Below, piece by piece: positions 19,547 to 35,974 of a DNA stretch of 44,987 nucleotides (the first letter of the stretch is position 1; each line of letters begins with the position of its first letter). This DNA is from a bacterium (GTDB lineage: Bacteria > SZUA-182 > DTGQ01 > JAFGSM01), in NCBI GenBank assembly GCA_049472355.1, contig JBLIRP010000019.1, positions 1 through 44,987 on the forward strand, written 5' to 3'. The notes beneath the pieces are model-generated. The model was not told where the DNA came from, did no database searches, and saw only the letters and a list, made by a program, of their open reading frames with translations. Made by a program: the position numbers and the translations under genes.

Positions 19547-19720
19547 ATGGGCCTATGGAATAAGCTGTTTAGAAGAAATCCGCCGCACTCCGCCATTCAT
19601 CTTGGTCGCAATGAACCCTGCTGGTGCGGCAGCGGTAAGAAATACAAGAAGTGTCACTACGCATCGGACCAGAAATATTTCGCTCGTATCTTCGCACCCA
19701 CCTGCAAAACACCCTCTTGA
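19547..19720 (+). CDS. SEC-C motif miniprotein (57 aa, absent from the ORF track)
   Basis: [65 protein letters not shown]. Confidence 0.85.
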
Positions 19721-19933
19721 AGTCTGAAATCGAGGTGAGTCTCACCTTCTCTATGCATCCGCAGGATATGTCTCATTGTGCATTCGTAACGACGGGCTGC
19801 CGATTCGGCATACGTCCGTAAGATCTTGAGAATAAAGGCCCTTGAACACGTTGACCCTTCGCTGCCTCAAGCACATGGCCTCACATTATTTCCCTTGTCA
19901 TCTTTTGCCGAGTTGTTTTTGAGTAGCTGTCTT

Positions 19934-20066
19934 TTATGGAATCGTAAAAAGTCGATTTTACCCTATTCAGTCATTCCGGCTTGACACTGAATCCAGTTTT
20001 TTCAATTACTTCTGGACTCAGGCCTTCAGCGGAGTGACAAGTTTGACGACTTTTTACGAGGCCATC
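19934..20066 (+). repeat. MITE-like repeat family B, copy 2
   Basis: ATGGAATCGTAAAAAGTCG ... CGACTTTTTACGAGGCCAT termini; internal GTCATTCCG...GAATCC and GGACTC...CGGAGTGAC palindromes. Confidence 0.85.
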
Positions 20067-20290
20067 TTCTTTAGAAAAGCCAGAATTCTGCCTGGTCTTT
20101 CACCCAGGTGCGCAACTTCCATCAGTTGCCGGCGGGGATCATAGTGATCTTCCTGCCGGTGTGATTGGAAAACGTCGGTCCATGCAATATAATAATATAA
20201 AAATGGAGAAATATCGCATTGTTCAGGTCTTGCCATTGTTCGAGTACGTAAAACCGAGCCATAACAATCCATAATCCGGAGGAGGATGCC

Positions 20291-20740
20291 ATGCTGAAAA
20301 GGGGCCTTTTTCATATCGCGGTCGTTTGTGCCTTCATCCTTTTTTTTGCCGTTCAGGTCTGTGCGCATTGTGAAATCCCCTGCGGGATTTACGATGATGA
20401 GATGCGGATCGCTATGATCAATGAGCACATCGCCACCGTCGAGAAGTCCATGAATCAAATCACGGCACTCGAAAAGGCAGATCATGGCCATTCCAACCAG
20501 TTGGTCCGATGGATCATGAACAAGGAGCACCATGCGGATGCAATTCAGGAGATTGTTTCACAATACTTTTTGACCCAGAGGATCAAGCCTGACACGAAGG
20601 ACTACGAAAAGAAGCTGAAGGCCCTTCATCAGATGCTGATTTACAGCATGAAATGTAAACAGACCACGGAGATAGACCATGTGAATACCTTGAAGGGCCT
20701 GGTGGAGGATTTTCAAACCCTCTATTTCGAGAAGAAATAA
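20291..20740 (+). CDS. sodN: Nickel superoxide dismutase precursor with Sec signal peptide
   Basis: Ni-hook HCEIPCGIYD directly after a hydrophobic leader ending VCA; NQLVRWIMNKEHHA and KCKQ motifs. Confidence 0.95.
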   Translation: MLKRGLFHIAVVCAFILFFAVQVCAHCEIPCGIYDDEMRIAMINEHIATVEKSMNQITALEKADHGHSNQLVRWIMNKEHHADAIQEIVSQYFLTQRIKPDTKDYEKKLKALHQMLIYSMKCKQTTEIDHVNTLKGLVEDFQTLYFEKK

Positions 20741-20759
20741 CCTCTACGAGGAGGACCGG

Positions 20760-21359
20760 ATGAGCAAGAGAAACAAACAGGTGATACTGATCGCCCAGTG
20801 TCTGGTCAATCCCTATTGCAGGGTGCACATCCTGGGCCAGAATTTCCCTTTGTCGCATGAATTGACGAATTTTCTGATGGAGAAACGGATCGGCATCATC
20901 CAGTACCCCTGTCCGGAAACAACGGCCATGGGGCTCATGCGGAATCCCCAGGGGCGTCAGCAGTATGACAACGTGTTTTTTCGGAACCACTGCAAGGAGC
21001 TTCTCCGGATACCCATGTTGATGGTAAGGGAATTCTTGAAAAACAAGTACCATCTCGTGTGTTATATCGGTCTGGAAAACAGCCCTACATGCGGGATACA
21101 CTGGGGGAGGCACAAAATCAACAGGTATCAGACGGAGTCCCCCAATCCGGTGGATCAGCCGGACCCGAACGACCCTGTCTTGATGGGCATCATGGCGGAG
21201 ATCCTGTCCGAGGAGTTTGGGGCGGACAACATCAGGGTGCCTTTTCTGGAATTTCCAACCAAATCCCAGCCGGATTCCAGGGAGCGAAGAAAGTTTTGGG
21301 AGGACCTGGACAACGCGATCATGGCGGCTCGTCAGGAAAAAAGAGGGGACCCTGAATAG
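20760..21359 (+). CDS. DUF523/TudS-related (CD3072-like) putative Fe-S desulfidase
   Basis: KQVILIAQCLVN, IGIIQYPCPE...GL.R, QYDN, and SPTCG cysteine motifs. Confidence 0.8.
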   Translation: MSKRNKQVILIAQCLVNPYCRVHILGQNFPLSHELTNFLMEKRIGIIQYPCPETTAMGLMRNPQGRQQYDNVFFRNHCKELLRIPMLMVREFLKNKYHLVCYIGLENSPTCGIHWGRHKINRYQTESPNPVDQPDPNDPVLMGIMAEILSEEFGADNIRVPFLEFPTKSQPDSRERRKFWEDLDNAIMAARQEKRGDPE

Positions 21360-21441
21360 GCCGCAGCGAGGTATAACAAGGATGCTACGTATCTGCGGGT
21401 ATGATCATGAAAGGCATGATCATAAACTCGCCTTTCTGGAT

Positions 21442-21686
21442 AAACCCTCATGCCACGTTGTGGCACCACGAAGCATGAAAATTTGATTATATTCTTGGAT
21501 CAAACCCTCATGCCGCTTCGCGGCGCCACGAAGAATGAAAATGCTATATTTTCAGATGAATACAGGATATTTTCGAGACAAACCCTCATGCCGCTTTAGC
21601 GGCGCCACGAAGGATGAAAATATAATTTTCAATAGGATATGTGATATTTTCGGAGCAAAAACTGTCAATTCAAGACCTGACCCCAA
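21442..21686 (-). repeat. REP-like repeat family A, copy 3 (three palindromic units plus end motif, inverted)
   Basis: AAACCCTCATGCC...CCACGAAG.ATGAAAAT units at 21442, 21502 and 21580, then AAAAACTGTCAATTCAAGACCTGACCCCAA. Confidence 0.9.
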
Positions 21687-21786
21687 GCCACTGAGAAAGG
21701 TGGTGGTATAAATAAAGACATTGATATTAATATGTCAAGAGCTTATGGCGCATCGTATCAACCTCTTATAAACCATGGAGCAAGCT

Positions 21787-22527
21787 ATGAAAAAATCCCA
21801 AAGATTACGTATATTATTATTTACGATACTGATAGTATTTGCAGGAATAAGTAGAGCTAATGCTGATTCTATCCTTTACTTTAATGATTATTGTTTTGGG
21901 ACTGATCAAATGGGTGAGGCACTGAAAGCCCTATCAGGCACTCATACAGCAACCCAAGTTTCTACTTCTTCTGATTTTGCAAGTTTAATAGCAACGGGTG
22001 ACTTTGATTTGGGTATTATGATGATTCAAGACTCTTGGTCAGATAATTATTCAGATGGTATTTATGCCTTGAGTAATTTTGTTAACAACGAAGGAGGAAG
22101 GGCCATCTACACAGATTGGAGTATGGATAATACCTATGCAGCCCTGTTTGATGCTCAGTGGACAGGGGCTGTTAATGACGGGCAGATCACCGTCACCCAT
22201 CCTCAAATGAGCAATGGTATTTCCAACCCAATTTCAATTTATAGTTCGGGATGGGGGGTATTTTCAATGGACGTTGATGGACCCGAACTTGCAGCCTACT
22301 TTAGTAATGGTGCCGGAGCCATTTCCATAGGCAATGGTCAGCGCAGCATCGTCAATGGATTTTTAACTGATACGTTTGTCGATGGGGGTCAAGGCGTGCA
22401 ACTTTATATTAATCAGGTTGGTTATCTAATCGAAACCAAGCCCGTTCCAGAACCCGGTACTATATTTTTGTTGGTTTCAGGGTGTTTGGGGCTTATTGGT
22501 ATCAAAAGAATATCTCTTATTTGTTAG
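21787..22527 (+). CDS. PEP-CTERM sorting-domain protein
   Basis: Signal peptide; C-terminal KPVPEPGTIFLLVSGCLGLIGIKR; AT-rich. Alternative start at 21775. Confidence 0.9.
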   Translation: MKKSQRLRILLFTILIVFAGISRANADSILYFNDYCFGTDQMGEALKALSGTHTATQVSTSSDFASLIATGDFDLGIMMIQDSWSDNYSDGIYALSNFVNNEGGRAIYTDWSMDNTYAALFDAQWTGAVNDGQITVTHPQMSNGISNPISIYSSGWGVFSMDVDGPELAAYFSNGAGAISIGNGQRSIVNGFLTDTFVDGGQGVQLYINQVGYLIETKPVPEPGTIFLLVSGCLGLIGIKRISLIC

Positions 22528-22626
22528 GCCTACTGAAAAGTTTAAGACTTATATACGTTCACCATCGGCTATTTTGAGTTTTTGTTTGTTTGCGTTTCAC
22601 CTTTATCAGCATGGATCATCGAGGGC

Positions 22627-23172
22627 TTAAGCTCGCTTCAGATTAAAACCGGCGATCATCAAGATGAGGGAGGCCAGCAAGGCAATTCCGTATCCTTTCA
22701 TCTGGTAGTTCACTGAGAGAACCTTCTTCTTCTCAAGCGTGGATACATCCTTGGAAATCCAGCCTGGCTTCTCCCAGTCCGTCCCCTCGACATACCACCA
22801 TCCTTCCGATTCACCCTTCCTGGTGAGCTGCTCACCATTGGTGACCTGCTCAATAACTTGAGTCTTGGTCGTATTACTTTCGCGTATATTGGCTCGTGTC
22901 CCCGTTACCAGAATGAATTCACTATTTGATACCGAGAAGTCGATGGCATCCTTGCTTGCAAGAAAAATGACCCCAATGGCTGCACACAAGCTTACCAGAA
23001 TAAATAATTTTCCCAGTAACGTGGATCTCTTGAAATGGTGCCAGAATGCACCAAGGGTACGTAAATAGATTCCTTTGAGGAATTTACCCAACAGGATAAT
23101 GGTGTACACGGCCCCTTGTTGGGTAGACTTCACTGCTATTTGTGCATCATGAAATCCGCTTTCTTCCTGCAT
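22627..23172 (-). CDS. Membrane protein with bacterial SH3 domain
   Basis: GGAGG RBS; TM segment; VTGTRANIRES...VIEQVTNGEQL...EGWWYV...GWIS; C-terminal TM. Confidence 0.85.
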   Translation of the reverse strand: MQEESGFHDAQIAVKSTQQGAVYTIILLGKFLKGIYLRTLGAFWHHFKRSTLLGKLFILVSLCAAIGVIFLASKDAIDFSVSNSEFILVTGTRANIRESNTTKTQVIEQVTNGEQLTRKGESEGWWYVEGTDWEKPGWISKDVSTLEKKKVLSVNYQMKGYGIALLASLILMIAGFNLKRA

Positions 23173-23372
23173 GGTTAACCTCCTTTTGAATAATGATGAT
23201 TTTGGCCTCGTAAAAAAACATGGCTTCAAACAGACATCGATGTGATATCTGACAAGCCTTTTCTAAAAAAATTCATGCAGGCCACAGTTTTCTGATGGAT
23301 CATGCAGTATCCTTTTTTCAGACGTTCTTACAGCATGTATGTATCACCATATATACATATCGGATATTTTAC

Positions 23373-23456
23373 ATAGAGATCTTGGCCAAAGGGGAGAAGA
23401 GCAAGGCCCGGGTGACCGATGCCCTGGGTAAAGGATGCGGGGCATGCGCCGCGGCG
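23373..23456 (+). pseudogene. Fragment of a 4Fe-4S ferredoxin-like domain (HdrA C-terminus-like)
   Basis: GC-rich patch translating IEILAKGEKSKARVTDALGKGCGACAAA, similar to the A.V.EALCKGCGACAAACP motif with two Cys lost. Confidence 0.5.
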
Positions 23457-23704
23457 CAGAAGGATATGAGGCTCCCTCTTTTCTTCCGTTGAATTCGCAA
23501 AGATCGTTTGAAGTATTTCTTTTTTTTTCCCGATAAAAAAAACAAGGGATTCATAAATCCAGCAGCCATGTCTTAAAAATCAATCTTGGGGTAACCAATT
23601 GTGCAGTGGCGATATATTCGGCAGCAAAGGCCGCAATCATTTCTACTTAAAAATTATTTTAAGGGAAATAAAAAAACACTGAACCAATGAAAGGGAGGCA
23701 TAGA

Positions 23705-25378
23705 ATGGCCGGTATCGTTGAAAAAACCAGCAGTTATGTCTTAGGGATCGATCTGGGGACGACGAATTGTGCAGTGGGGATATACAAAGCAGGAAAGACT
23801 GAAATTATTTCCATCGACGGCGCCAAGACCATGCCGTCTGTAATGTCTGTCCTAAAAGATGGCGAGATTCTCGTTGGAACCCAGGCAAGGTCTCGCAGTA
23901 TAATTGCGCCGGAAAGTACCGTCTCATCCATAAAACGGCACATGGCGACAGACTGGACAAAGGAGTTTGAGGGGATCCCAGGGAAGGTCTTTACACCAGT
24001 GGATGTTTCATCTGAAATTCTCTTGAAATTGATCAATGGTGCCCTACAGAATGAAACGATCGATCTCGGGGGCACCCCAAGGTATGCGGTTATTTGTGTT
24101 CCCGCAAACTTCAATGATGCACAAAAGAAGGCTACTCAAATGGCTGCGGAACTCGCTCATCTTGAGGTTTTGACCCTGTTGGAAGAGCCGATAGCCGCTG
24201 CATATGCATACGCTATTGAAAAAGAGCGGGTTCAGACGGTTCTGGTCTATGACCTTGGTGGCGGTACTTTTGATGTTTCCATCCTTGAAGTCAACTCGAG
24301 TGGAAATGCAAATAAAAAGTTTAAAGTTCTTGCCAAGGAAGGTATTCAAGAACTGGGAGGAGATGATTTTGACCAAAGGCTTATGAAAATAGTGGCTGAC
24401 AAGTTTGCTGAGGAATCCGCTATCGATATTCTTGATCTAAGTAAGGACCAGGGAATCAGCGCCAAAAAGGCCAGAGAAGCTCAACAAAAACTGCTTGAGG
24501 CAGTAATTGCCGCAAAGCACGAACTTTCCGAATCAACCAATACCTCAATAGATATACCCAACTTCATCCAGGATGAGAGCGGGAAATCTTACCACATAGA
24601 CAATTTGGAGATCACCAGGGAACAATTCAATGAAGAAATTCGTGACCTGATACTTCAAACCAAAGGGTCGGTTGAAAAGGCTCTAAGCGCTGCAAAACTT
24701 GGGATTGAAGATATTGATCGGATCATCCTTGTCGGCGGTTCCACCAAGATCCCACTGGTACGAGAAATGTTGCATGAAATATTCGGAAGAGAACCTTATT
24801 CCGATACAGATCCGGATACTGCAATAGCTCGAGGCGGCGCCATACTCGGGGCTACAATGATGTTGCCGGATCCGGAATTGGAACGCCCCGAAGAAGACAC
24901 GGCTGATTTTGTGATCGACATCGATAATATTGTCACTCACAATCTGGGTATAGAAGTTGTTGGAGGCAAGTTCAGTTGCCTGATACCAAAGGGTACTCAG
25001 ATACCCGAGGACGGCCCCGCCAGTGCCGGCAAAGAATATACAACGCCGCTGGACAATCTGACGGAGTTGGCTATTGTGGTGTTTCAGTCCTCTGAAGATG
25101 TTGAATATGTATCATCTGATGGCACCAAGTGCATCGGTGAATTCTTTCTCAAGGGAATTCCGCCGAAACCGAGAGGTCAAGAACGTATACATGTTGAATT
25201 TGAGATCGACAGCCAAAATCTATTGAAAGTAAAGGCAACGAGCTCCAGCTCATCAGGTGAGCTTGAAATCCGCGAATCCAACATGATCGATAGACAACAG
25301 AGGATTATGCCGGAGGACGATAGACAGGAACAAGTCAGCGAAGAACTAGAGGAAGAACCAGAGAAGGTTATGGCATAA
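23705..25378 (+). CDS. Hsp70/DnaK-like protein 1 (NBD + SBD-beta, no helical lid)
   Basis: GIDLGTTN, VPANFNDAQKKAT, EEPIAAA, YDLGGGTFDVS, LGGDDFD, LVGGSTKIP, GIPPKPRGQERIHVEFEID; GGGAGG RBS. Alternative start at 23687. Confidence 0.95.
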   Translation: MAGIVEKTSSYVLGIDLGTTNCAVGIYKAGKTEIISIDGAKTMPSVMSVLKDGEILVGTQARSRSIIAPESTVSSIKRHMATDWTKEFEGIPGKVFTPVDVSSEILLKLINGALQNETIDLGGTPRYAVICVPANFNDAQKKATQMAAELAHLEVLTLLEEPIAAAYAYAIEKERVQTVLVYDLGGGTFDVSILEVNSSGNANKKFKVLAKEGIQELGGDDFDQRLMKIVADKFAEESAIDILDLSKDQGISAKKAREAQQKLLEAVIAAKHELSESTNTSIDIPNFIQDESGKSYHIDNLEITREQFNEEIRDLILQTKGSVEKALSAAKLGIEDIDRIILVGGSTKIPLVREMLHEIFGREPYSDTDPDTAIARGGAILGATMMLPDPELERPEEDTADFVIDIDNIVTHNLGIEVVGGKFSCLIPKGTQIPEDGPASAGKEYTTPLDNLTELAIVVFQSSEDVEYVSSDGTKCIGEFFLKGIPPKPRGQERIHVEFEIDSQNLLKVKATSSSSSGELEIRESNMIDRQQRIMPEDDRQEQVSEELEEEPEKVMA

Positions 25379-25427
25379 TATGATTTGTTGAGCCTGGTTC
25401 GCCTGCAATTCCTCGCGGCCTTTTTTA

Positions 25428-25474
25428 CTCCGCGTGGCCTCCCGCCCCAAAGGTGCGGGAGGCCACGTTCGGAG
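25428..25474. other. Strong intergenic hairpin between Hsp70-1 and the GrpE-like gene
   Basis: CGTGGCCTCCCGC-9nt-GCGGGAGGCCACG is a perfect 13-bp stem, extended by CTCCG/CGGAG. Confidence 0.75.
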
Positions 25475-25579
25475 AATGTGGAATCGGTTCAGGATTTTGT
25501 GCTTCGAAGTAACTTTATATATATCTATACATGGAACATTGAATGCAAGGATCGAAGCCCTTAAGGAGGAATTGGAAAA

Positions 25580-26719
25580 TTGGAAAATTGGGATGACAGG
25601 ATCAGTCGCCTTGAGGAAAAGACCACATCTTCCGAAGAACAGGGAGAAGCAATACCGGACTCTAAGGAAGCGAGAATAGAAAAGGTCGAGCAATGTCAGA
25701 GGGGACTTGAAGACCGGCTCAATGAGCTGGAAACAAAATTTGACGAAGTTTGCTCGCACCTGAAACAGATGGGCTCACCATCCCCTCCTGTGAAGGCCGA
25801 TCCGGCTGATGAAGAGATAGTCCTCAAAGAACCTGACCTGGATATCCAGGGCCTCATCACTCAGGCAAAGGCCAAAGAACAGGAAAGTCTTAAAGAAGAC
25901 AGAGAGAGTATTGAGCTGGGTCTAAAGAATGCCGGGTTTTGGCTTGATCGTGGGGAAAGATTGAAGGCCCTGATCAAAGAGTTGGCAAACCCTGTCGATG
26001 AAGCCATAGCAAACAGCAACAGAATCCTGGTACGCCTCCCGGAGGAACTCAAGACAAATCTGGAAAGCAGCCAGCAGGGACTCAACATTATTGGGAGGAT
26101 GCTGCAAGGCTTGGTTGAGCAGGATGATCGACTGAAAAGACTGGTAGAGAGAATTGAATTGGCTGACAATGTAAGGGAGCTTGAGGATGATGAATGGAGA
26201 GAACTTCTGCACGGTGAAACCGATGAGCGGTCAGCACAAGAAAAGATCAACGAGAAGCTGGATGCTATTGGAAGGTCAAACTACAGACTTGTATCCAAAG
26301 CAGGTGAACTCGCTGAAAAAAAACAAAAGATATGGCTTGATTTCATCGTAAAACAGATCCTCCCTATTTTTGATGGTATTAACGATGGAAAGAAGCATAC
26401 CTCGATTCTGATCGATGAATTAATGGAGCGATTTCAGGAATCGGAATCTGAATTGCGTGAATGGTTTGATACCTATGCGACGCTGAGCAGAATGATTTCG
26501 ACCGTGCTGAATGATGTCGGCGTTTACCGGATGGACGTAGAGCCTGGTATGATGATCGATTTTGAGCGCCATGAACCCTCTTTGGTTGAGGCCGATTCCG
26601 AGATGGAAAACGAACAAATCAAAGAAATCGGCAGGGACGGGTATGAGTACGTTAATCAGAATGGAAACCGGCAGACGCTTCGCCTTGCACGTGTGGTTGT
26701 TGTCAAGAATAACGATTAA
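25580..26719 (+). CDS. grpE: Long GrpE-like nucleotide exchange factor with extended coiled coil
   Basis: C-terminal ILPIFDGI...VGVYRMDVEPGMMIDFERHEP...EIGRDGY...LRLARVVVVK matches the GrpE fold pattern; 379 aa; start uncertain. Confidence 0.85.
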   Translation: MENWDDRISRLEEKTTSSEEQGEAIPDSKEARIEKVEQCQRGLEDRLNELETKFDEVCSHLKQMGSPSPPVKADPADEEIVLKEPDLDIQGLITQAKAKEQESLKEDRESIELGLKNAGFWLDRGERLKALIKELANPVDEAIANSNRILVRLPEELKTNLESSQQGLNIIGRMLQGLVEQDDRLKRLVERIELADNVRELEDDEWRELLHGETDERSAQEKINEKLDAIGRSNYRLVSKAGELAEKKQKIWLDFIVKQILPIFDGINDGKKHTSILIDELMERFQESESELREWFDTYATLSRMISTVLNDVGVYRMDVEPGMMIDFERHEPSLVEADSEMENEQIKEIGRDGYEYVNQNGNRQTLRLARVVVVKNND

Positions 26720-26800
26720 AAAATCAAAATGGTCAGACGTAACAGGAAAGTCCGGCATCAATAAATGAAACAGCTCTAAGGAGCTGCCAGGAGATATCGT

Positions 26801-28300
26801 ATGGCGGTTGATAACGAAACCAATCCGGTATTAGGCTTTGATTTAGGCACAACCTTCAGTGCACTGGCCAGGTGGGTAGACAGGAAAGGACCTCAAATCA
26901 TCCAAAACAGGTCCGGGCAGGATACAACGCAATCGGTCGTCTACTATAACCCTGGAAATGAAGAAATTCTGGTCGGCAATATAGCATATAACAGGGGACT
27001 TATGGAGCCGGAAAACATGATCGTCGGTGTGAAACGGCTCATGGATGATGGCAGTCAGAAGGTCGTGCTTGGAGGTAAGGAATTTACTCCCATCCAGCTC
27101 TCTTCTTTGATTTTAGAGAAGATATATGAAGATGCGAGGATGAAATATCCAAAAGGTGCCTTTAAAAGCCGTGGCAGTGTCGTCACCGTTCCATGCTATT
27201 TCAAGGCGCATCAGATGGATAATACCCGCAAGGCGGCTGACATGACGGATATTAATTGTATTGGAATTATTCAAGAGCCCGTTGCCGCTTCTCTTTCCTA
27301 TGCCCTGCAAATCTGTGAGGATCATTTTGACAAGGAGTTCAGCCAGAAAATTCTCGTCTTTGATCTTGGGGGCGGCACCCTTGACATTACATTGTTTCAA
27401 CTTGAGCATACCAATGACACAATATATTTTGAGGTCCTTGCCAGCAACGGCGATGACAGGCTGGGTGGGATGGACTTCGATCGATGTCTTGCAGATCTTA
27501 TTTTGAAAAAAAGTCGTGTTTCTTTAGATGGTGTTGAACCAAAACTGTTCAATAAGGCGCAAAGGAACCTGCTTGAACAGTCAACATTGGCCAAAATCGC
27601 ATTGACTGCCTCTAATGATTACTATGTGGCCATTCCGTTTATACTTCCTGATAAACACATCGAGGTTTCGGTTACCCGTGAAGAATTCGCAAGATGCATA
27701 AAACACTATTTAAATAAGATTTCAGGTATTATTGATAGTCTTTGGGCCACTTCCAAACTAAGACCTTCTGATATTGATCGCGTTATTCGAGTCGGCGGCT
27801 CAAGCCAGATACCATGCATGAAAAAACTGCTGGATGATATCCTGGGCGCTGAAAAAACATGGAGTAATATAAACCCCTCTACGAGTATTGCTGAAGGGGC
27901 GGCAATGTACGCCGCCTATCTTGACAATACCGGTTTTTTCAACAAAAAGATCGATATTCGAACCCGCACCACGCATGCCATGGGAGTCAAAACATCCGGG
28001 AACACGTTCATAGATCTTATTCCTGCAAATCGCCAGACGCCTTGCTCTGCCAAACAAGTGTTCACCACCGCCCAGGATAACCTCAAAAAACTGACCATCG
28101 AAGTCTATCAGGGATCAGGCAAAAAGGTCTCAGAAAAGACCCATTCTCTGATTGGAAAGATACCCATTGATAACCTGCCCCCGAAACGGGCCGGTGAAGT
28201 CGATATCGTCGTCACGTTCTCAATAGATTCTGCACAGATATTGTCGATAACCGTCGAGGTCGAAGGTCAGAAAAAATCGGCAGTTCTTGATTATACCTGA
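26801..28300 (+). CDS. Hsp70/DnaK-like protein 2 (499 aa, no lid)
   Basis: GFDLGTTFS, VTVPCYF, QEPVAAS, FDLGGGTLDIT, LGGMDFD, VGGSSQIP, FTTAQDN...LPPKRAGEV. Confidence 0.95.
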   Translation: MAVDNETNPVLGFDLGTTFSALARWVDRKGPQIIQNRSGQDTTQSVVYYNPGNEEILVGNIAYNRGLMEPENMIVGVKRLMDDGSQKVVLGGKEFTPIQLSSLILEKIYEDARMKYPKGAFKSRGSVVTVPCYFKAHQMDNTRKAADMTDINCIGIIQEPVAASLSYALQICEDHFDKEFSQKILVFDLGGGTLDITLFQLEHTNDTIYFEVLASNGDDRLGGMDFDRCLADLILKKSRVSLDGVEPKLFNKAQRNLLEQSTLAKIALTASNDYYVAIPFILPDKHIEVSVTREEFARCIKHYLNKISGIIDSLWATSKLRPSDIDRVIRVGGSSQIPCMKKLLDDILGAEKTWSNINPSTSIAEGAAMYAAYLDNTGFFNKKIDIRTRTTHAMGVKTSGNTFIDLIPANRQTPCSAKQVFTTAQDNLKKLTIEVYQGSGKKVSEKTHSLIGKIPIDNLPPKRAGEVDIVVTFSIDSAQILSITVEVEGQKKSAVLDYT

Positions 28301-28335
28301 TCCTATGTTAATGTTGTAAGAAAAGGGAGAATGCC

Positions 28336-30033
28336 ATGATACTTGGGGTCGATTTTGGGACTTCGCATACAGTGGCCGCGTCCTTAGAGGATGGCACCTA
28401 TACGGTATGCAGGTTTACCTGCAACGGGGAATCCAAGGAGTATATCCCTTCATTAATAGCCGTAAAGGATGGTTCCATCAAGTTTGGATGGGATGCCGTT
28501 TCGTGTGAAAATGATCCCAACGTTTACCTTATGCGTTCTCTGAAACGTATGTGCGGACATTGTCCGCCTGATCTTGATGTGGAGCTTGCTCCTGATGTTC
28601 ACGTGACTATACTCGAACTGACTGCCCTCTTTTTGGGGCATGTCAAGGAGATGCTCAAGAACAATAGCAGCCTTTCTATCGATAAGGATAAGCCGATCGA
28701 GGTGATGATTGCGACACCCGCCAATGCGAATACAAACCAGCGTTATATCACTATGGAGGCGTTCAAGAAGGCAGGCTTTACTGTCAAAGGCATGCTGAAT
28801 GAGCCCACTGCAACCGCCATAGAGTTCTCTCACCGTTACCTAAAGAAGCCTGGGAATCAAGGCCCTGTGAAGAATGTCGTCGTGTATGACCTGGGCGGGG
28901 GTACATTCGACGCCTCTGTTATCGGGTTGGATAACAACTACTATGACGTGATAACCCATGAAGGGGTAGCAAAGCTTGGCGGCGATGATATCGATACGGT
29001 CATCCTGGACCTGGTCCTGCAAAGGTTAAACAAACAAAGAAAAGAGTTGAGCCAGAGTGACCACATTCGACTTTTGGAAGAATGCAGGAAAAAAAAGGAA
29101 GGCATAGATGGATTCGGTGGAAAATTGACAATCGATGTCAGTCATGTCTTTCATGAGGAGAGACATGTACAGCTTGACAAAAAGGATATCTATAACCACT
29201 GCGAGCCGATAATCCAGCAGAGTCTGGATACGCTCAACACCGCGATCAAGACATTTGAGATGACGGAAACCGATTCTAAGGAAAGACGCAATCTCGACGC
29301 AATCTATTTAACAGGCGGGGCTGTTGCCTTTCCATTAGTCACCCGAAGGCTGCATGATCAATTTGGTAAAAAGGTCCGGATATCTCCTTATCCGGAGGCT
29401 TCCACTGCCATTGGCCTTGCCATCAGTGCAGGCCCTGCCCTGAGCGGCCGGCTTAGAGAAGCCGTCACCCGGAACCTTGGTGTATGGAGAGAATATGGCA
29501 CCAATAAGATCTTTGATACCATCATTGATAAGAGAAGTCGGCTGGAAACGCAATCCGGTACGCTTCGAATAAAGCGAACGTATAACCCGATACACAATCT
29601 TGGCCATCTTCGCTTTATAGAATGCAGCTCCCTTGGGCAGTCCGGTGAGCCGAGCGGAGATATTACGGACATAAAAGAAATCTTCTTTCCATACGATCCA
29701 CAATTGAAGGATGAGGAAAGGCTTTACCAGGTTCCTGTGATGAGTCGTCCGGATTTATCGACACAGGAAGTAACTGAAACATATTCCTATGACTCCCGGG
29801 GGATAATAACACTCGAGATTGAAAACCTGTCTGCGCAATATAAAAAGACGTACATACTCTCCCAAAGGTATCTGCCTGTTGAGGCCGACGAGGACGTTCT
29901 TCCCCAAAGGCATCTGCCGGCTGGGGCCAGCAAGGGCGTTCCTTCCCAAAGACATCTGCCGGGTGAGGCCAACCGGGATGTTCATCCCCAAAGGTATCTG
30001 CCGACTGAGGCCAACCGGGACGTTCATAAATAA
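28336..30033 (+). CDS. Hsp70-family protein 3 with divergent substrate domain and repeat tail
   Basis: GVDFGTSHT, NEPTATA, YDLGGGTFDAS, LGGDDID, LTGGA; atypical C-terminal domain (GVWRE, HNLGHLRFIEC, FPYDP). Confidence 0.9.
   Translation: MILGVDFGTSHTVAASLEDGTYTVCRFTCNGESKEYIPSLIAVKDGSIKFGWDAVSCENDPNVYLMRSLKRMCGHCPPDLDVELAPDVHVTILELTALFLGHVKEMLKNNSSLSIDKDKPIEVMIATPANANTNQRYITMEAFKKAGFTVKGMLNEPTATAIEFSHRYLKKPGNQGPVKNVVVYDLGGGTFDASVIGLDNNYYDVITHEGVAKLGGDDIDTVILDLVLQRLNKQRKELSQSDHIRLLEECRKKKEGIDGFGGKLTIDVSHVFHEERHVQLDKKDIYNHCEPIIQQSLDTLNTAIKTFEMTETDSKERRNLDAIYLTGGAVAFPLVTRRLHDQFGKKVRISPYPEASTAIGLAISAGPALSGRLREAVTRNLGVWREYGTNKIFDTIIDKRSRLETQSGTLRIKRTYNPIHNLGHLRFIECSSLGQSGEPSGDITDIKEIFFPYDPQLKDEERLYQVPVMSRPDLSTQEVTETYSYDSRGIITLEIENLSAQYKKTYILSQRYLPVEADEDVLPQRHLPAGASKGVPSQRHLPGEANRDVHPQRYLPTEANRDVHK
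29860..30027 (+). repeat. Four in-frame 42-bp tandem repeats (14 aa)
   Basis: SQRYLPVEADEDVL / PQRHLPAGASKGVP / SQRHLPGEANRDVH / PQRYLPTEANRDVH. Confidence 0.95.
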
Positions 30034-30092
30034 ATCAGTCACTCAGCCAGGCAGGTGCTCATTGTAATCCAAGCGTTCAATCGGCATTCAAT

Positions 30093-30126
30093 AAAAAAGC
30101 AGGGCCTTCTTGGGGCCCCGCCTTTT
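30093..30126. terminator. Probable bidirectional terminator between convergent genes
   Basis: AAAAAAGCAGGGCC-loop-GGCCCCGCCTTTT. Confidence 0.55.
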
Positions 30127-30161
30127 ATGATACAACGCCATGGTTTAAGACAGCATCGGGC

Positions 30162-30890
30162 TTATCCCTTCGACCTTCTCCTTACTCCTACCAGCCCTAT
30201 CAACCCAAACCCTAAGAGGAACACGGTGGATGGCTCAGGCACGGGTGTGGAAGGGCGATCGGGAGGGGGTTCATCGATGTAAAAATTGTCCATTCCGAAG
30301 CAGTATGCGTTTTCTGAACTCAGGGTGAATGAGGTAATGCTGTCGAAATTATCATCGAGCCACAACCTTTGAACACCATCACCTGGCTCACCATAAAAAT
30401 CGTAGTCAAAACCCCAATCGCTCGAGGGCAAACGCATGCTGTAACCACGATTGTTTGTGATGTATGATTCTTCTTCCCCGCTTGATTGGCCACCGCCGAC
30501 GATAGTGTTCGATGTCATGTCAACGTAATTCAAATCGAAGAATGAGCCATCTATTTTGGTGAAAACTATAGCATAATTTTTAAAGGGATGGGCATGGATC
30601 ACACTATTATTATAGATAGTGTCTTCCTCATTATAGTTAGGGCCATCCTCGCGGATTGAATAATAGTCTCCTATAATTGAGTCACCGCCACTGCCCACAA
30701 AGTCTATACGCATTCCTTCTTCCTCATAGTAATCCACGTCCCACCAAAGCCCTTCGTCTGTTGTTGTGACACTGTTGCCATTTAACAGGTATGCCGTCCC
30801 ACCGGAAAAATCAATTATCAAGCCTGTAACCGGCCCCGCAATGCCAACAAAAAACAAGAAAGCACATAAAAAAACCAACAACCTTTTCAT
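30162..30890 (-). CDS. PEP-CTERM sorting-domain protein
   Basis: Signal peptide MKRLLVFLCAFLFF; acidic body; TPVPEPSTVFLLGFGLIGLVGVRRR. Alternative start at 30905. Confidence 0.92.
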   Translation of the reverse strand: MKRLLVFLCAFLFFVGIAGPVTGLIIDFSGGTAYLLNGNSVTTTDEGLWWDVDYYEEEGMRIDFVGSGGDSIIGDYYSIREDGPNYNEEDTIYNNSVIHAHPFKNYAIVFTKIDGSFFDLNYVDMTSNTIVGGGQSSGEEESYITNNRGYSMRLPSSDWGFDYDFYGEPGDGVQRLWLDDNFDSITSFTLSSENAYCFGMDNFYIDEPPPDRPSTPVPEPSTVFLLGFGLIGLVGVRRRSKG

Positions 30891-30935
30891 CCCAACACCC
30901 CCCATTTCTTTGATGTTGTTTTACCCAAACAACGA

Positions 30936-31068
30936 TGATGGCCTCGTAAAAAGCCGCCAACCTTGTCACTTCGTCGAAGGCCTTAGTCCATACGTTTTAA
31001 AAGAACCGGATTCCGTGTCACGCACGGAATGACAGATAGGGTACAATCGACTTTTTACGATTCCATCA
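30936..31068 (-). repeat. MITE-like repeat family B, copy 3 (inverted)
   Basis: TGATGGCCTCGTAAAAAG ... CTTTTTACGATTCCATCA; reverse complement is similar to 19934-20066. Confidence 0.85.
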
Positions 31069-31179
31069 ATTATTCTACTTAACCAATCAGTAAGTCAATT
31101 CGTGAGCTGCGTCTATAGTTTCCCCCGGATTTTGGACGGCATGCTGAGCTTTCCGGAAGAGAGGAATTGTGGTGTCAAA

Positions 31180-31207
31180 ATTATATCACACCTCAAGGGG
31201 AATTCAA
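31180..31207 (-). promoter_or_regulatory. sigma70-type promoter upstream of the PEP-CTERM gene
   Basis: Minus strand TTGAAT, 16 nt ending TGA, then TATAAT. Confidence 0.55.
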
Positions 31208-31223
31208 CATTGCATTTGGGCAT

Positions 31224-31450
31224 TTGGGGTCAGGTCTTGAATTGACAGTTTTTGAAACAAACCCTCGGGTCAGGGCATTTGGGGTCAGGTCTTGAATTTG
31301 GGAATGGCTTGTGGGAATGGCTTGGGGTCAGGCCTTGAAATGTCAGTTTTTGTTCCCCAGAATAGAATAATATTTTCAGGCTTCGTGATGTCACAAGGTG
31401 CATGAGCTTTTGTTCCAAGAAACTGTCAATTCAAGACCTGCCCCCATTTT
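31224..31450. repeat. REP-like family A, complete small element with both inverted ends
   Basis: Left-end motif GGGGTCAGG.CTTGAA at 31226, 31281 and 31324; one degenerate palindromic unit; right end AAACTGTCAATTCAAGACCTGCCCCC. Confidence 0.9.
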
Positions 31451-31475
31451 ATTTTAATTTGATAATTCACGCAAA

Positions 31476-31497
31476 ATGTGTTACACATATTTATGTG
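31476..31497. promoter_or_regulatory. Putative antitoxin operator
   Basis: Overlapping palindromes ATGTGT-T-ACACAT and CACATA-TT-TATGTG just upstream of the antitoxin. Confidence 0.5.
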
Positions 31498-31522
31498 AAG
31501 CACTTAAAATTGGGAGGGTATC

Positions 31523-31768
31523 ATGGACAGGCAAAATGTCACGTTATCATTGCCCAAATTGTTGTTGAAAAAGGCAAAAATTTTAGCAGCAAGCGAGGAT
31601 AAGTCCCTGAGTGAATTTCTCAGAGAGACCTTAGAGGAAAAGATTAAGGAAGCAAATGGGTATAAAAAGGCAAGAAGCAGACAGGTGAAGATGATTAAAA
31701 CGGGCTTTGATCTTGGGACGAAGGGTACGATAACCATTTCAAGAGAGGAACTGCATGCCAGGAGATAA
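31523..31768 (+). CDS. Ribbon-helix-helix antitoxin
   Basis: QNVTLSLPKLLLKKAKILAA...SLSEFLRE...SREELHAR; overlaps the PIN gene. Confidence 0.85.
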   Translation: MDRQNVTLSLPKLLLKKAKILAASEDKSLSEFLRETLEEKIKEANGYKKARSRQVKMIKTGFDLGTKGTITISREELHARR

Positions 31769-32186
31769 GATATTTGTGGATACAAATATCATCATCTATG
31801 CATATGATACCTCTGCCGGGAAAAAGCATGAGATAGCCGGAAGGATCATGCTCGATCTATGGGATTCTGGATTGGGGGTCATAAGCACACAGGTGCTGCA
31901 GGAATTTTTTGTTAGCGTTACAAGCAAGATACCAATCCCCCTTGATATAAAAAAGGCAAAAGAAATCATTAGGGATTTCTTAAAATGGGAAGTAATTATC
32001 AATGATGGTGCGCGTATCTTAAGTGCAATAGAAATCCAGGCAATGTACAAATACTCGTTTTGGGATTCAATGATCCTTGAATCTGCAATAAGCTCAGGAA
32101 GTTCTCTATTGTTGTCAGAAGATTTTTCTGATGGGCAACTCGTTCACAACGTTACGATCAAAAACCCATTCAAGGCCTCACGATAG
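31755..32186 (+). CDS. vapC: PIN-domain toxin (VapC family)
   Basis: FVDTNIIIYAYD, STQVLQEF, SFWDSMI, LLSEDF. Confidence 0.92.
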   Translation: MPGDKIFVDTNIIIYAYDTSAGKKHEIAGRIMLDLWDSGLGVISTQVLQEFFVSVTSKIPIPLDIKKAKEIIRDFLKWEVIINDGARILSAIEIQAMYKYSFWDSMILESAISSGSSLLLSEDFSDGQLVHNVTIKNPFKASR

Positions 32187-32363
32187 AGTCTGCCCCCATT
32201 TTGTTCGGGTAGACAGGAACAGAATCTTGCCATAAAGGCCATCGCAGGGGCCTTATCACAAATTATTTTCGACAAAAATTATGAGGACGCAAAGGTACCT
32301 GCAAAGGAATAAGACGTAGGGATTTGGTTATACGTAGAATTGTGCTATACTGCGTATAACATT

Positions 32364-33413
32364 ATGGGAAAATTGCCCCTTACAACACAGACACTCTATG
32401 CTGAGCTGGTGGAGCAGCTTGTGGCTCTTGAGGCCCGGCGCTCCATAGGCTCTTTGCCGGGCTGCTTTACCTTCAAAACCGTCAAGGGCGAAAGCTATGT
32501 CTATTTTCAGTATAGCGATATGCACGGATCCCCTAAACAGGTTTACATCGGGAGAAAAACACCCGCACTCGATAAGGTGATCGATAGGTTCCAGGAGGAG
32601 CGAGAAAGAAATAGGGAAGATATCGAAAATATTCAACTACTCTGTGCACAGCTCAGGGCCGGCGGGATATTATTGACGGATACCTCATCCGCTCGGGTGC
32701 TCAAAGTGCTTGCCGACAGCGGGGTTTTCCGTCTGAGCGGGGTTCTTATCGGAACGTACGCGTTTACCGTGCTGGGTAATGTACTCGGTGTCCGATGGAA
32801 AGGTGCGGCGATCAAAACGCACGATATCGATATTGCCGGAGGAAAGCGTATGGAGATCGCCCTGCCCGAGATCCATGCTGATATTCCGCAATCCCTCGAG
32901 AGTCTTAATATGGGTTTTTTGCCTGTACCGCCCCTTGATCCACGCCATCCTTCCACCTCCTTCAAGGTCAGGGGGAATCCCCTCAGGGTGGATATCCTCA
33001 CCCCTTCCAGAACCCATATGACTCATAAGCCTGTCACGATCTCCCGATTCAGGACAGCAGCGCAGCCATTGAGATTTCTTGATTTCCTCATCGAAAGACC
33101 GGTACAAGCGGCGATCGTCGATGGGGGTGGCGTCCTGGTGAATATCCCGTCTCCATCTCGGTTTGCCCTCCACAAACTGCTGGTAGCAAAGGAACGTGAC
33201 GTTTCGATGCATCACAAGACGGAAAAGGACATCATCCAGGCCGTTCAGGTCCTCGACGTCCTGATGGACGAAAGGCCGGGGGACTTACCTCTGGCATGCC
33301 AAGGGCTAAAGAAACGGGGAACCGTCTGGATAAACAAATTACGAGCAGGATTATCGGAGTTAAAAGGGCGGAATCCGGATGTATACGATCATTTGGAAAG
33401 GCTATTGGAATAG
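32364..33413 (+). CDS. GSU2403-family nucleotidyltransferase-fold protein
   Basis: TLYAEL...KTVKGESYVYFQ...YIG; GVLIGTYAF...T.DIDIA; VDILTP; FALHKLLVA...KDI.QA. Alternative start at 32340. Confidence 0.85.
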   Translation: MGKLPLTTQTLYAELVEQLVALEARRSIGSLPGCFTFKTVKGESYVYFQYSDMHGSPKQVYIGRKTPALDKVIDRFQEERERNREDIENIQLLCAQLRAGGILLTDTSSARVLKVLADSGVFRLSGVLIGTYAFTVLGNVLGVRWKGAAIKTHDIDIAGGKRMEIALPEIHADIPQSLESLNMGFLPVPPLDPRHPSTSFKVRGNPLRVDILTPSRTHMTHKPVTISRFRTAAQPLRFLDFLIERPVQAAIVDGGGVLVNIPSPSRFALHKLLVAKERDVSMHHKTEKDIIQAVQVLDVLMDERPGDLPLACQGLKKRGTVWINKLRAGLSELKGRNPDVYDHLERLLE

Positions 33414-33514
33414 CCGGTCCAATCGAGAATCCCAAGACTCCCACTCCTGTGTCTTACGAAATTCGCCTCTACGGAAGAATATAAGGTGGTGTTTATTCTA
33501 CCAGGGAGGACCAG

Positions 33515-33766
33515 TTGTTTAGGGTACAGTATTGTTCAGTTAAGAAAGACCGACGCACAACAATCCCTGACGCAGCGGAGGTACCATGATGAAAAGGGGC
33601 TTTCTTTTTCGCATGTTATATCGGTCTGGAAAACAGCCCTGCCTGCGGGACCCTGGCGGGATTTGCGGGGACGGATTGTGCCCTCATGGCCCTTGACGTG
33701 GAACGGTATATGATGGCGCCCCGGTTTCAACAGATCATGGAGAAGGACGTAACCCCATGCCGTTGA
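33515..33766 (+). pseudogene. Mosaic of collapsed remnants: sodN 5' region, TudS-like fragment, PNPOx fragments
   Basis: 33515-33612 resembles 20219-20319; 33614-33650 matches 21060-21096 (35/37); 33650-33675 matches 17576-17601 (22/26); 33674-33766 resembles 17843-17935. Confidence 0.85.
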
Positions 33767-35952
33767 TCCTTTCGCTTCAATCCCCAAGCGGGAAAATCCG
33801 GAAGGTTGCCGGTTCCAAGGCCGCGGCAATCGCCGAGATGTCCGGACAGGGCATCCGGGTGCCCAAAGGGGTATGCGTGGCGGCCGATGCCTATCAGACA
33901 TTTGTCTCCCAAACGGGGATCCGTGAGCGCATTGTCATGGAACTGGGAAGGAAACCCTTCGAAGAGATGCGGTGGGAAGAGATGTGGGATGCCTCCCTCA
34001 GGATCAGGAACCTGTTTCTCACCGCCCCCTTTCCCCCAGAGCTAAACAGTGCCCTGCGCAAAGCCCTTCAGGGGCATTTTGATCGTGTTCCCGTGGCGGT
34101 CCGGTCCTCATCCCTTTTGGAAGACACCCAGGGGACCTCCTTTGCGGGGTTGCACGAGTCCTTTCTGAATCTCAGGACCATAGATGAGATCATGACGCAT
34201 GTGGTTCTCGTCTGGGCCTCCCTCTGGTCCGATGCAGCGCTCCTGTACCGTCAGGAGCTCGGACTGGATATCCGCAGCAGCGCCATGGCCGTGATCATTC
34301 AGGAGATGATCGAAGGGGAGTCCTCCGGTGTGGCCTTCGGTGTGTCTCCGGAAGACTCGACCCATGCCGTCATCGAGGCGGTATACGGCCTGAACAAGGG
34401 GCTGGTGGACGGGGATGTGGAACCGGACCGATGGATCCTGGACCGGGCCACGGGCCGGATCATTTCCCATATCGCTTCCTCCCGCGATTCCATGGTGGTG
34501 GCGGATACAAGAGGGACCCGGATGGAGAAACGCCCCGGGGATCAGTCCAACCGCCCCCCTCTGGATGAGGGGCAGATCTCCGGGATATTCCGCACGGTGA
34601 AACAGCTCGAGGGGTTGTTTCATGCACCCCAGGATATGGAATGGACGATCCGGGGGAATGAACTCTGGGTCCTGCAGGCACGACCCATTACAACAAGCAC
34701 TCAAAAAGGGGAGGGCGACAACAGATCCTGGTATTTGAGCCTGAGGAGAAGCTTCAACAATCTCAAGGCCCTGGGAGAGCGGATCGAGGGTACGATCCTC
34801 CCGGCCATGGATGAGGAGGCGGACCGGCTCCGGAAGGTCGCCCTGGAACCCCTCTCCGACCAGGACCTTGCCGAGGAGATCAAGCGTCGCAAAAAGGTGT
34901 ATGTGCACTGGAAGGGTGTATACTGGGAGGAGTGCATCCCGTTCGCCCACGGTGCCAGATTGCTGGGTCAGATCTACAATGACCGGGTCCGTCCGGATGA
35001 TCCCTACGAGTTTATGGATATCCTGGTGTCCGAGGCGATGAAGAGCATGGAGCGGAACCGGAGGCTGGAGGAGATGGCATCCCGCGTCCGGGAGCTTTTC
35101 CCGGACGGAGGCGAGGCTTCGGAGATCAGGGATGAGGCGCTTGTACGGGACATCGATTCCTTCGTCCGGGCCTTCAGCGGCCAGGCCTGCGCGCTCGTGG
35201 ATTGTGAGGACGAAAGGAGGGCGATCGCCCGTTTGCTGGTGGAGATGGCCCGTCATGAGAGTTTGAAGGAAACGAAACCCCCCAGGCAAAAGGCCGCTCT
35301 CGTCGAAGGGTTTCTAAACAGCTTTCGTCCGGATGAACGGGCCTACGCATTGGAACTGATCGACCTGGGCCGCAGGAGCTACCGGCTGCGGGACGACGAC
35401 AACATCTATCTGGGCCGGATCGAGTTCCAGTTGGACCGGGCAATGAAGGAGGCCCACAAAAGGCTGGGTGATCGCTGCCGGGATGCGGCGGCGTGCCGGA
35501 GCGAGGAGGAAATCGTCAGGGCACTCAATGACAGGACGTATGTTCCAAAAGGCATACGCCCTCAGGCGGATAAAAAAGGCGAAGTCCCCGTCAAGGCCAG
35601 GCAGTTGAGGGGGCAGCCGGCAGGGCAGGGGATCGCCAGGGGAAGGGCCCGGGTCATCCATGAAACGTCCGAGCTTTTTGCATTCAAATCGGGCGAGATC
35701 CTGGTGTGCGACGCCATCGATCCCAACATGACCTTCATTGTGCCCCTTGCCTCCGCCATCGTGGAAAGAAGGGGCGGGATGTTGATCCACGGGGCCATCA
35801 TTGCCAGGGAATACGGCCTGCCCTGCGTCACCGGCATCCCGGACGCCACGGTCCTTATCCATGCCGGGGACGAGATCACGGTGGACGGCTATCTGGGGCT
35901 GGTGACCATCCATACGGGGACATTCGGCGAACCGGATGACGGAACAAAATAG
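33757..35952 (+). CDS. PEP/pyruvate-binding (ATP-grasp) plus phosphohistidine swivel enzyme; rifampicin phosphotransferase-like architecture, substrate unknown
   Basis: VAVRSS...ED...SFAGLHES, IEAVYGL..GLVDG, PQDMEW...LQARPIT; C-terminal GGMLIHGAIIAREYGLPCV. Confidence 0.9.
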   Translation: MPLILSLQSPSGKIRKVAGSKAAAIAEMSGQGIRVPKGVCVAADAYQTFVSQTGIRERIVMELGRKPFEEMRWEEMWDASLRIRNLFLTAPFPPELNSALRKALQGHFDRVPVAVRSSSLLEDTQGTSFAGLHESFLNLRTIDEIMTHVVLVWASLWSDAALLYRQELGLDIRSSAMAVIIQEMIEGESSGVAFGVSPEDSTHAVIEAVYGLNKGLVDGDVEPDRWILDRATGRIISHIASSRDSMVVADTRGTRMEKRPGDQSNRPPLDEGQISGIFRTVKQLEGLFHAPQDMEWTIRGNELWVLQARPITTSTQKGEGDNRSWYLSLRRSFNNLKALGERIEGTILPAMDEEADRLRKVALEPLSDQDLAEEIKRRKKVYVHWKGVYWEECIPFAHGARLLGQIYNDRVRPDDPYEFMDILVSEAMKSMERNRRLEEMASRVRELFPDGGEASEIRDEALVRDIDSFVRAFSGQACALVDCEDERRAIARLLVEMARHESLKETKPPRQKAALVEGFLNSFRPDERAYALELIDLGRRSYRLRDDDNIYLGRIEFQLDRAMKEAHKRLGDRCRDAAACRSEEEIVRALNDRTYVPKGIRPQADKKGEVPVKARQLRGQPAGQGIARGRARVIHETSELFAFKSGEILVCDAIDPNMTFIVPLASAIVERRGGMLIHGAIIAREYGLPCVTGIPDATVLIHAGDEITVDGYLGLVTIHTGTFGEPDDGTK

Positions 35953-35974
35953 CGTCAGATCGAGAATATCTCCT

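Follow-up and report, generated by a model that had tools for sequence, protein, structure and literature searches.

Bacterial DnaK derivatives were called unexplored 'dark matter' in a 2026 review, which asks whether they are partners of other Hsp70s (PMC13580251), and in both this review and PMC11019930 they are described as functionally unknown or treated as beyond scope. In eukaryotes, Hsp110 and the lid-less Ssz1/HSPA14 have a diverged linker or lack the lid and partner other Hsp70s (PMC13580251). Among bacterial systems, those of the GAP1-N2 DO-GTPase type combine a non-housekeeping HSP70 with GrpE, occur sporadically in multicellular bacteria and sometimes contain a second HSP70, which lacks the peptide-binding domain; DO-GTPases, GAP1 and FNIII repeats, in most cases fused to DnaJ or TPR, form their basis, and vWA and kinase themes are shared by sister systems (Kaur et al., 2020; PMC7159879). 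HSP70-GrpE themes appear there only inside DO-GTPase/GAP1-N2 systems. Single lid-less DnaK-like domains, approximately 50% identical to DnaK, were found fused to protease-effector modules with a cysteine protease and the pore-former EACC1 and were proposed to act as sensors (PMC12642450), and CnuD is a degenerate Hsp70-like protein of the McrBC systems named CoCoNuT (PMC11090510). Here, we analyze a 44,987-nt stretch of bacterial DNA (GTDB lineage SZUA-182; assembly GCA_049472355.1, contig JBLIRP010000019.1), termed the window, which is the entire contig C60 of a genome (G000) that is 87.5% complete. It contains a block of four genes, H1, G, H2 and H3, encoding three diverged Hsp70s and one long GrpE-like protein, and the operon to which they belong is a conserved and apparently undescribed variant of private Hsp70-GrpE systems, present here in a reduced form.

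The conserved unit is H1/G/H2. A genome scan yielded 30 loci, 24 of them true family members, and a metagenome scan yielded 60 loci, of which 50 were counted, a set that includes near-duplicates. Fifteen loci (L027-L032, L090-L098) matched only weakly and were excluded from counting; 11 of these carry a J-domain gene, and L027 scans as canonical grpE-dnaJ. L077, which has only the end of G, was left uncounted as well. Of 24 genome loci, 22 have H1 ahead of G, as have 31 of 32 metagenome loci, and, where the flanking sequence was long enough, H2 lies behind G in 22 of 23 and 41 of 43 loci, respectively. No match to the J-domain profile was obtained in any counted system locus, while 11 control loci with canonical grpE matched. 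The hosts belong to Desulfobacterota, Vecturithrix (KSB3), cyanobacteria, Phycisphaerae (planctomycetes), Chthonomonadaceae and Bacillaceae, with Priestia, Niallia, Domibacillus and Desulfonema as culturable carriers, and the core proteins are 45-55% identical across phyla. Beyond the seed genomes, the system was carried by 1 of 400 cyanobacterial genomes and by none of 400 genomes from Bacillota and 250 from Desulfobacteria; in the latter 250, orthologs of H1, G and H2 were each absent, so that none occurred alone. The initial annotation, made from the letters of the window, had proposed a specialised, horizontally moved system, which agrees with this distribution and with the comparison to relatives of the host: a search for G in 19 genomes from the class was negative in all of them, and approximately 17 kb including the block are absent from the congener G001 (97% complete), because window positions 19454-19752 and 36773-37136 map next to each other in that genome (C20:21283-21580 and 21588-21951).

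Natural versions of the operon range from a minimal form of three genes, which recurs in many close relatives, to a maximal form of up to ten genes. The longest form comprises, in this order, two to three vWA genes, a trypsin gene, HA, HB, H1, G, H2 and a gene for a kinase-like protein, where HA is a further lid-less Hsp70 and HB an Hsp70 with a vWA domain fused in place of the lid. In genome loci with enough flanking sequence, HA was present in 17 of 21, HB-vWA in 7 of 21, trypsin in 8 of 21 and vWA in 7 of 21, while 13 of 22 had the kinase-like gene. The His, Asp and Ser triad of the trypsin is intact, so that it is predicted to be active, and no signal segment is evident. The kinase-like protein is regarded as a pseudokinase because the HRD aspartate and the DFG motif are missing. 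Its tail varies between InlB B-repeats, TcaA-type NTF2, YARHG and, in one case, an FGE-sulfatase domain; the Bacillota versions have TcaA-NTF2 or YARHG tails, and five of the six listed contain a hydrophobic segment scoring at least 1.8. In Desulfonema magnum, H1, HA and G-H2 are retained at three distant sites. A tblastn search of the window genome, at the completeness given above, detected no ortholog of HA, HB, vWA or pseudokinase and two trypsin-like matches on other contigs. From these sequence comparisons, the block in the window is a reduced form of a larger operon that elsewhere includes genes for vWA proteins, trypsin and pseudokinase.

The surroundings of related operons contain stress and envelope genes. 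A TerF-type vWA gene (E 7e-69) and TerD-like genes (Atlas score 0.95, TM 0.80) are interspersed among the operon genes in Vecturithrix. TerF-type vWA genes were detected in seven genome loci, and loci with TerF/TerD-like genes are a minority. Downstream of Bacillota operons lie PspA, amidase or GH3 genes, and downstream of some cyanobacterial operons lie genes for OmpA or Calx-beta surface proteins. Several individual loci deserve mention. Three related TerD-like proteins without Pfam match are encoded at L007:3085-5888 and 12661-13227, with similar Atlas clusters, one of which is often phage-derived. In Ectobacillus (L024:7681-9402), a 573-aa Hsp70 with HA-type motifs in the N-terminal half and an H1-type C-terminal half is probably an HA/H1 chimera. 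Three trypsin-domain genes follow the pseudokinase at L071:4120-8693, and the two complete ones are fused to TPR repeats. A superfamily-1 helicase of approximately 1500 aa with a C-terminal Vsr-like nuclease (Hhe/Mokosh-like) is encoded directly upstream of H1 and co-oriented with it in one lineage (L043, L052, L053, L055 and L056; broken in L005).

A unit of three Hsp70s, as originally suggested, did not hold up. Among loci with 3.6 kb of flanking sequence, H3 lies behind H2 in none of 22 genome loci and in 3 of 19 metagenome loci (L040, L041 and L047, with 79-81% identity). The H3 family is large (1256 matches), and its members occur without H1/G/H2: relatives at approximately 49% identity lie beside a phosphoglucomutase gene (3/3), and relatives at approximately 33% identity pair with a short GrpE-like gene (5/5). 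Synteny and independent occurrence of the family rule out H3 as a core member, and judging from these comparisons H3 is a recruit from a separate, common Hsp70 family in one lineage only. The proposed search for conserved synteny was positive for H1/G/H2, gave H3 in the three relatives only and gave no match for the neighbouring SH3 gene. The tail of H3 (29861-30027) consists of four copies of a 42-nt (14-residue) tandem repeat, of which relatives have one or two. In genomes of the same order (L034-L038), an H3-family Hsp70 and a short GrpE-like gene form a two-gene module of their own, often beside a gene for an HD-domain protein.

The initial reading of four co-oriented genes was confirmed by open reading frames on the plus strand and Pfam assignments, and a Shine-Dalgarno-like site precedes each gene (Table 1). 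H1 and H2 are 33% identical to each other, H3 is 23-25% identical to either of them, and the paralogs share 32-41% identity with the DnaK of the host. All three scored below the DnaK and HscA equivalog cut-offs of NCBIfam (best 374 bits vs 648), and none reached the DnaK cut-off of TIGR02350/PRK00290. In a tree of 54 sequences, from which 30 near-redundant or partial rows were left out, each gene position formed one clade (support 0.95 for H1, 1.0 for H2, 0.995 for HA, 0.999 for HB-vWA and 0.99 for H3). No paralog clade fell inside DnaK, HscA or HscC, as expected from the divergence noticed at the outset, and YegD was distant from the paralog clades. Residue conservation was assessed with 42 H1, 55 H2, 21 HA, 12 HB and 9 H3 sequences. 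The catalytic residues D8, K70, E171, D194, T199 and D201 are 98-100% conserved in all five groups, consistent with the ATPase motifs initially recognized in all three Hsp70s, and with these six residues and the modelled Hsp70 fold the proteins are predicted to belong to the Hsp70 ATPase superfamily. Around P143 and E171, the signature differs from clade to clade. At positions corresponding to DnaK R167, N170 and T173, which we take to be contact residues of the J-domain, H1 has T or Y, E, and V or I, and H2 has G, Q, and I or V. The linker strings IDIDNIV, IDIRTRT and LREAV were read correctly from the window, but the DnaK linker has diverged rather than been lost: hydrophobic residues persist at DnaK positions 389 and 391, and charged or polar residues occupy positions 390 and 392. 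Neither a linker of the DVLLLD type described for DnaK (PMC13580251) nor the DnaK set of J-docking residues was found.

Absence of the helical lid, also part of the initial annotation, was supported for H1 by an AlphaFold model (pLDDT 85.5, pTM 0.79) and for H2 and H3 by alignments without any helical region of lid length past the beta-sandwich. The H1 model consists of a nucleotide-binding domain and a beta-sandwich that ends at residue 522, followed by a disordered stretch (524-557), and the linker is modelled as a beta-strand. It resembles the docked ATP-like state, with an rmsd of 2.4-2.5 Å over approximately 470 residues to the ATP-state DnaK structures 4b9q and 5nro and of approximately 24 Å to the ADP-state 2v7y, with the caveat that AlphaFold may favour the docked ATP-like state. 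As judged by dN/dS, purifying selection acts on all four genes of the block: values were 0.07-0.25 for the Hsp70s overall (H1 0.20 compared with L040 and L047, H2 0.07-0.18, H3 0.16-0.25), and G gave 0.37 against L039, a pair in which both N-termini are disrupted, and from 0.28-0.36 up to 0.53 in other pairs.

GrpE-like proteins of the system have 320-750 aa and contain an extra helical module; 104 close homologs of G and 327 cluster representatives at E ≤ 0.001 were collected, and no relatives were found in viral contigs or plasmids. One homolog (P0174) also carries a B-repeat. In the G model (pLDDT 92.4, pTM 0.76), helices at 89-152 and 155-180 are followed by a linker, helices at 216-284 and 286-312 and the GrpE beta-domain. 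The C-terminal module (216-377) is a full GrpE module with long helix, short helix and C-terminal beta-domain, and its Pfam score above the cut-off and the top fold matches to GrpE (1dkg_B, Z 11.0, rmsd 4.9, 142 aligned) place G in the GrpE fold. Matches to four-helix bundles (Z 8-10) were discarded as below the bar set for helical bundles. The N-terminal helix pair (89-180) matches in its lengths a second GrpE subunit that lacks the beta-domain, and it aligns best, though weakly, to 31 canonical GrpEs at the short-helix motif (E 0.003). Among the top ten inter-module couplings, six lie in the register of a pseudo-dimer compared with 15% expected, and shifted registers contain 0-3 (243 sequences, Meff 140); inter-chain and intra-chain contacts look alike in a monomer model combined with couplings. 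We therefore predict from the model that G folds as a single-chain pseudo-dimer that mimics the GrpE dimer with one beta-domain. A direct repeat test between the two modules gave a weak signal in a different register (probability 9.8%). If the prediction is true, the asymmetry of the GrpE dimer can be hard-wired in one chain.

In the lineage of the window, G has lost approximately 41 N-terminal codons through a deletion of approximately 123 nt, and it was likely restarted at a TTG codon behind an AAGGAGG site. L039 represents an intermediate with a frameshifted N-terminus and the identical 8-nt duplication. Assembly error as the origin of the short N-terminus was ruled out with an independent run of another study, in which a contig (X6 record 22) spans the deletion junction without differences.

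In comparison with the canonical DnaK-DnaJ-GrpE system, the block shares the Hsp70 fold, the complete ATPase site, the beta-sandwich and an adjacently encoded GrpE-family partner. In contrast, it lacks lid, J gene and HrcA/CIRCE, its linker and J-docking residues are changed, it has several non-redundant paralogs, and its GrpE is enlarged. The negative result for J gene, hrcA and CIRCE at the block had been noticed initially and was reproduced: no open reading frame matched the J-domain profile between 13 and 37 kb of the window, and no CIRCE was found in the window. The single CIRCE of the genome (≤3 mismatches) lies upstream of the housekeeping hrcA-grpE-dnaK on contig C116. Unlike the second HSP70 of GAP1-N2 systems, every paralog here retains the beta-sandwich. 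A search for GAP1-N2 gave matches in 0 of 5 carrier genomes, with a positive Corynebacterium control, and no DO-GTPase, GAP1 or FNIII-DnaJ/TPR match was obtained with Pfam among the selected neighbours scanned. The EACC1 modules similarly couple a lid-less DnaK-like domain to a protease (PMC12642450), but the present system differs in having separate paralogs, a trypsin and a GrpE-like gene, and it lacks a recognised effector. Ter clusters and the TerY-P triad, as in E. coli yegD beside yegI-pphC-yegL, likewise unite vWA, kinase-fold and Hsp70-family genes, whereas the kinase here lacks catalytic motifs and no PP2C phosphatase matched; YegI and YegL had no BLAST match to locus proteins. No conserved AAA+ family, as in MoxR-vWA systems, emerged from locus clustering or Pfam scans. 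Hsp110 and Ssz1/HSPA14 differ in being eukaryotic, whereas the paralogs described here are bacterial, operon-encoded and accompanied by their own GrpE-like factor. A match to a characterised system, which the initial annotation had named as counter-evidence, was not obtained among the systems compared. We found no description of the operon in the literature searched; two supplements of Kaur et al. (2020) gave no HSP70 or GrpE match, and Anantharaman (2012) or Figure 1-source data 1 of Kaur et al. (2020) could list the neighbourhood.

Our tentative first choice, held with a little less than even confidence, is that the operon encodes a J-protein-independent, ATP-switched machine for both surveillance and remodelling in envelope or Ter-type stress rather than a general folding chaperone. 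Stress surveillance is preferred because of the Ter and envelope neighbours of relatives (TerF/TerD-like, PspA, amidase, GH3, OmpA and Calx-beta). Also counted in favour of the machine were the intact ATPase sites, the changed J-docking residues of H1 and H2, the missing J gene in system loci, the fixed order of genes with one clade each, the retention of H1, HA and G-H2 together in Desulfonema and, as a precedent, the fused lid-less DnaK-like domains with a proposed sensor role (PMC12642450). In such a machine, lid-less and J-blind Hsp70s would clamp peptides briefly and exchange them fast without trapping, and G would reset the nucleotide state of the paralogs. In full operons, vWA proteins and the pseudokinase with its variable, often envelope-type tail may replace J proteins as loaders and sensor, and the trypsin would carry the output. 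In the window genome, the core might act alone or with partners other than the operon accessories. A more elaborate arrangement, in which up to four lid-less Hsp70s form a putative hetero-oligomer on the pseudo-dimeric GrpE, are loaded by vWA proteins and pseudokinase and convert an envelope or invader signal into trypsin proteolysis, appears doubtful. An Hsp70 cycle with neither lid nor J-domain that serves signalling would, if true, be a new mode for the family. The operon makes the question of DnaK-derivative partnering testable, since its orthologous paralogs are fixed, an exchange factor is dedicated to them, J proteins are missing and some carriers are culturable.

Several observations weigh against this reading. 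The loader-and-output model does not explain the stripped core in the window genome, because HA, HB, vWA and pseudokinase orthologs were not found there. Five J-domain genes located elsewhere in the genome, away from the block, could act in trans, and HA retains R167 and T173. Cyanobacterial pseudokinases mostly lack a membrane segment, which weakens the envelope reading outside Bacillota, and the TerD label depends on Atlas similarity, with Pfam, NCBIfam and PDB sequence searches being negative. The sequence signal for the pseudo-dimer is weak (HHalign probability 11%; 5 of 100 shuffles reached this score), and the same couplings had in part been used to set the coevolution registers.

Alternatively, the operon might be an anti-phage or anti-element conflict system with a ternary grammar, in which lid-less Hsp70s and vWA proteins detect invader proteins once these exceed a threshold and then set the trypsin free to act on a target that causes death or dormancy; we consider this unlikely. 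The sporadic occurrence, the location on an island and the hosts, many of which are presumably filamentous or multicellular, were counted in its favour, together with the Hhe/Mokosh-like helicase-nuclease upstream in L005 (broken), L043, L052 and L055 and SspC/SspD-like genes in L023. The parts list, with NTPase chaperone, vWA, trypsin, inactive kinase, variable non-enzymatic tails and one FGE-sulfatase tail, also echoes described conflict systems (Kaur et al., 2020). However, the operon has no conserved effector of the nuclease or pore-forming type, the core evolves slowly, and the stripped core without effector is nevertheless under purifying selection. The core genes gave weak partial matches in PADLOC 2.0 (PDC-M61B at 1e-7 for H1/H2, ZorA at 0.0025 for G) and fit none of its anti-phage system models, and most of 195 flanking proteins from 33 loci had no PADLOC match, many of the matches obtained being generic domains in a comparison without a background set. 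Of the roles suggested initially, an envelope role gained some support from the envelope and stress neighbours of relatives, while the association with defence islands proved weak.

Rather unlikely in our view is a private proteostasis add-on, in which the paralogs serve complex proteomes as Hsp110-like partners that promote nucleotide exchange or disaggregation by one another or by housekeeping DnaK. Such a role was proposed for bacterial DnaK derivatives (PMC13580251), and it would accommodate the ATP-like docked state of the H1 model, with the AlphaFold bias mentioned above, the persistence of the stripped core without accessories and the additional full-length, DnaK-sized Hsp70 matches in the five carrier genomes examined. 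It accounts neither for the conservation of the trypsin, vWA and pseudokinase genes nor for the sporadic spread on islands or the absence of CIRCE control, and the dedicated GrpE-like gene suggests that the paralogs are reset by G instead of being exchange factors themselves. That the block in the window genome is a decaying, functionless remnant of a larger operon is very improbable. The missing accessories, the deleted 5' end of G, the decayed duplicate of the H1 start upstream and the expanded repeat tail of H3 would fit decay. On the other hand, all four frames are open, the three-gene form is shared with many close relatives, and dN/dS of all genes is low, with the value between the two disrupted G copies being like that of intact pairs. 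Contigs from an RNA library span H1 and part of G, which is weak evidence against decay as well; run X16 gave no cover on H2 or H3, and since these are contigs without a silent control and with the same study as possible source, nothing firm can be said on expression.

Table 1. Positions of the block genes and associated features in the window.
Feature	Position	Strand	Description
H1	23705-25378	+	557 aa; Shine-Dalgarno ahead of ATG 23705; HSP70 (Pfam); acidic disordered tail
G	25580-26719	+	379 aa; TTG start; GrpE-like (Pfam E 2.8e-6)
H2	26801-28300	+	499 aa; HSP70 (Pfam); ends with last beta-sandwich strand
H3	28336-30033	+	565 aa; HSP70 (Pfam); family separate from H1/H2
Deletion of ~123 nt with 8-nt tandem duplication just downstream	near 25547; duplication 25570-25591	+	removed ancestral start of G
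Decayed second copy of H1 5' end	23550-23643	+	70/94 nt identical to 23718-23811
Terminator-like hairpin	30102-30118	+	3' of H3; consensus match only
Membrane protein with bacterial SH3 domain	22627-23229	-	divergently transcribed neighbour; not conserved with system
Variable island, ~17 kb	19753-36772	.	holds block; absent at syntenic site of congener G001

The gaps between H1 and G, G and H2, and H2 and H3 measure 201, 81 and 35 nt. A promoter scan remained at chance level (12 found vs 11.7 expected), and terminator-like hairpins in the region were not above chance (10 vs 7.4 expected). The initial impression that the block is AT-richer than its surroundings is correct relative to the genome (GC 0.466 vs 0.540, within the lowest 4.7% of 488 genome windows), but the flanks are equally AT-rich (0.448 for 19753-23704 and 0.459 for 30034-33500).

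The island also contains genes for Ni-SOD, a PIN pair, a nucleotidyltransferase and a PPDK-like protein, as well as the two flanking PEP-CTERM genes, which are real as annotated. SH3 and PEP-CTERM genes were considered as members of the system and rejected, as they had no match in related loci; three four-gene relatives have little upstream DNA. Within the island, positions 31523-33413 hold a DUF6364 antitoxin-like gene, a PIN-domain gene and an NTP_transf_8 nucleotidyltransferase gene. Short dispersed intergenic repeats with approximately 20 to 100 BLAST matches in the genome form the families 19932-20066/30936-31070/17177-17311, 21433-21692/17978-18173 and 31317-31450, and one family has a copy on either side of the Hsp70 region, the two being inverted relative to each other. 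Elsewhere in the genome, a 283-aa Gly/Tyr-rich low-complexity protein with a signal-like N-terminus is encoded near the housekeeping dnaK (L001:2303-3154, minus strand). A second non-housekeeping cluster (G000:C69:16425-19170; L002:5417-8474) encodes a TPR-like protein, a small J-domain protein, a GrpE-like protein and an Hsp70 of 590 aa, which in the tree is loosely associated with HscC.

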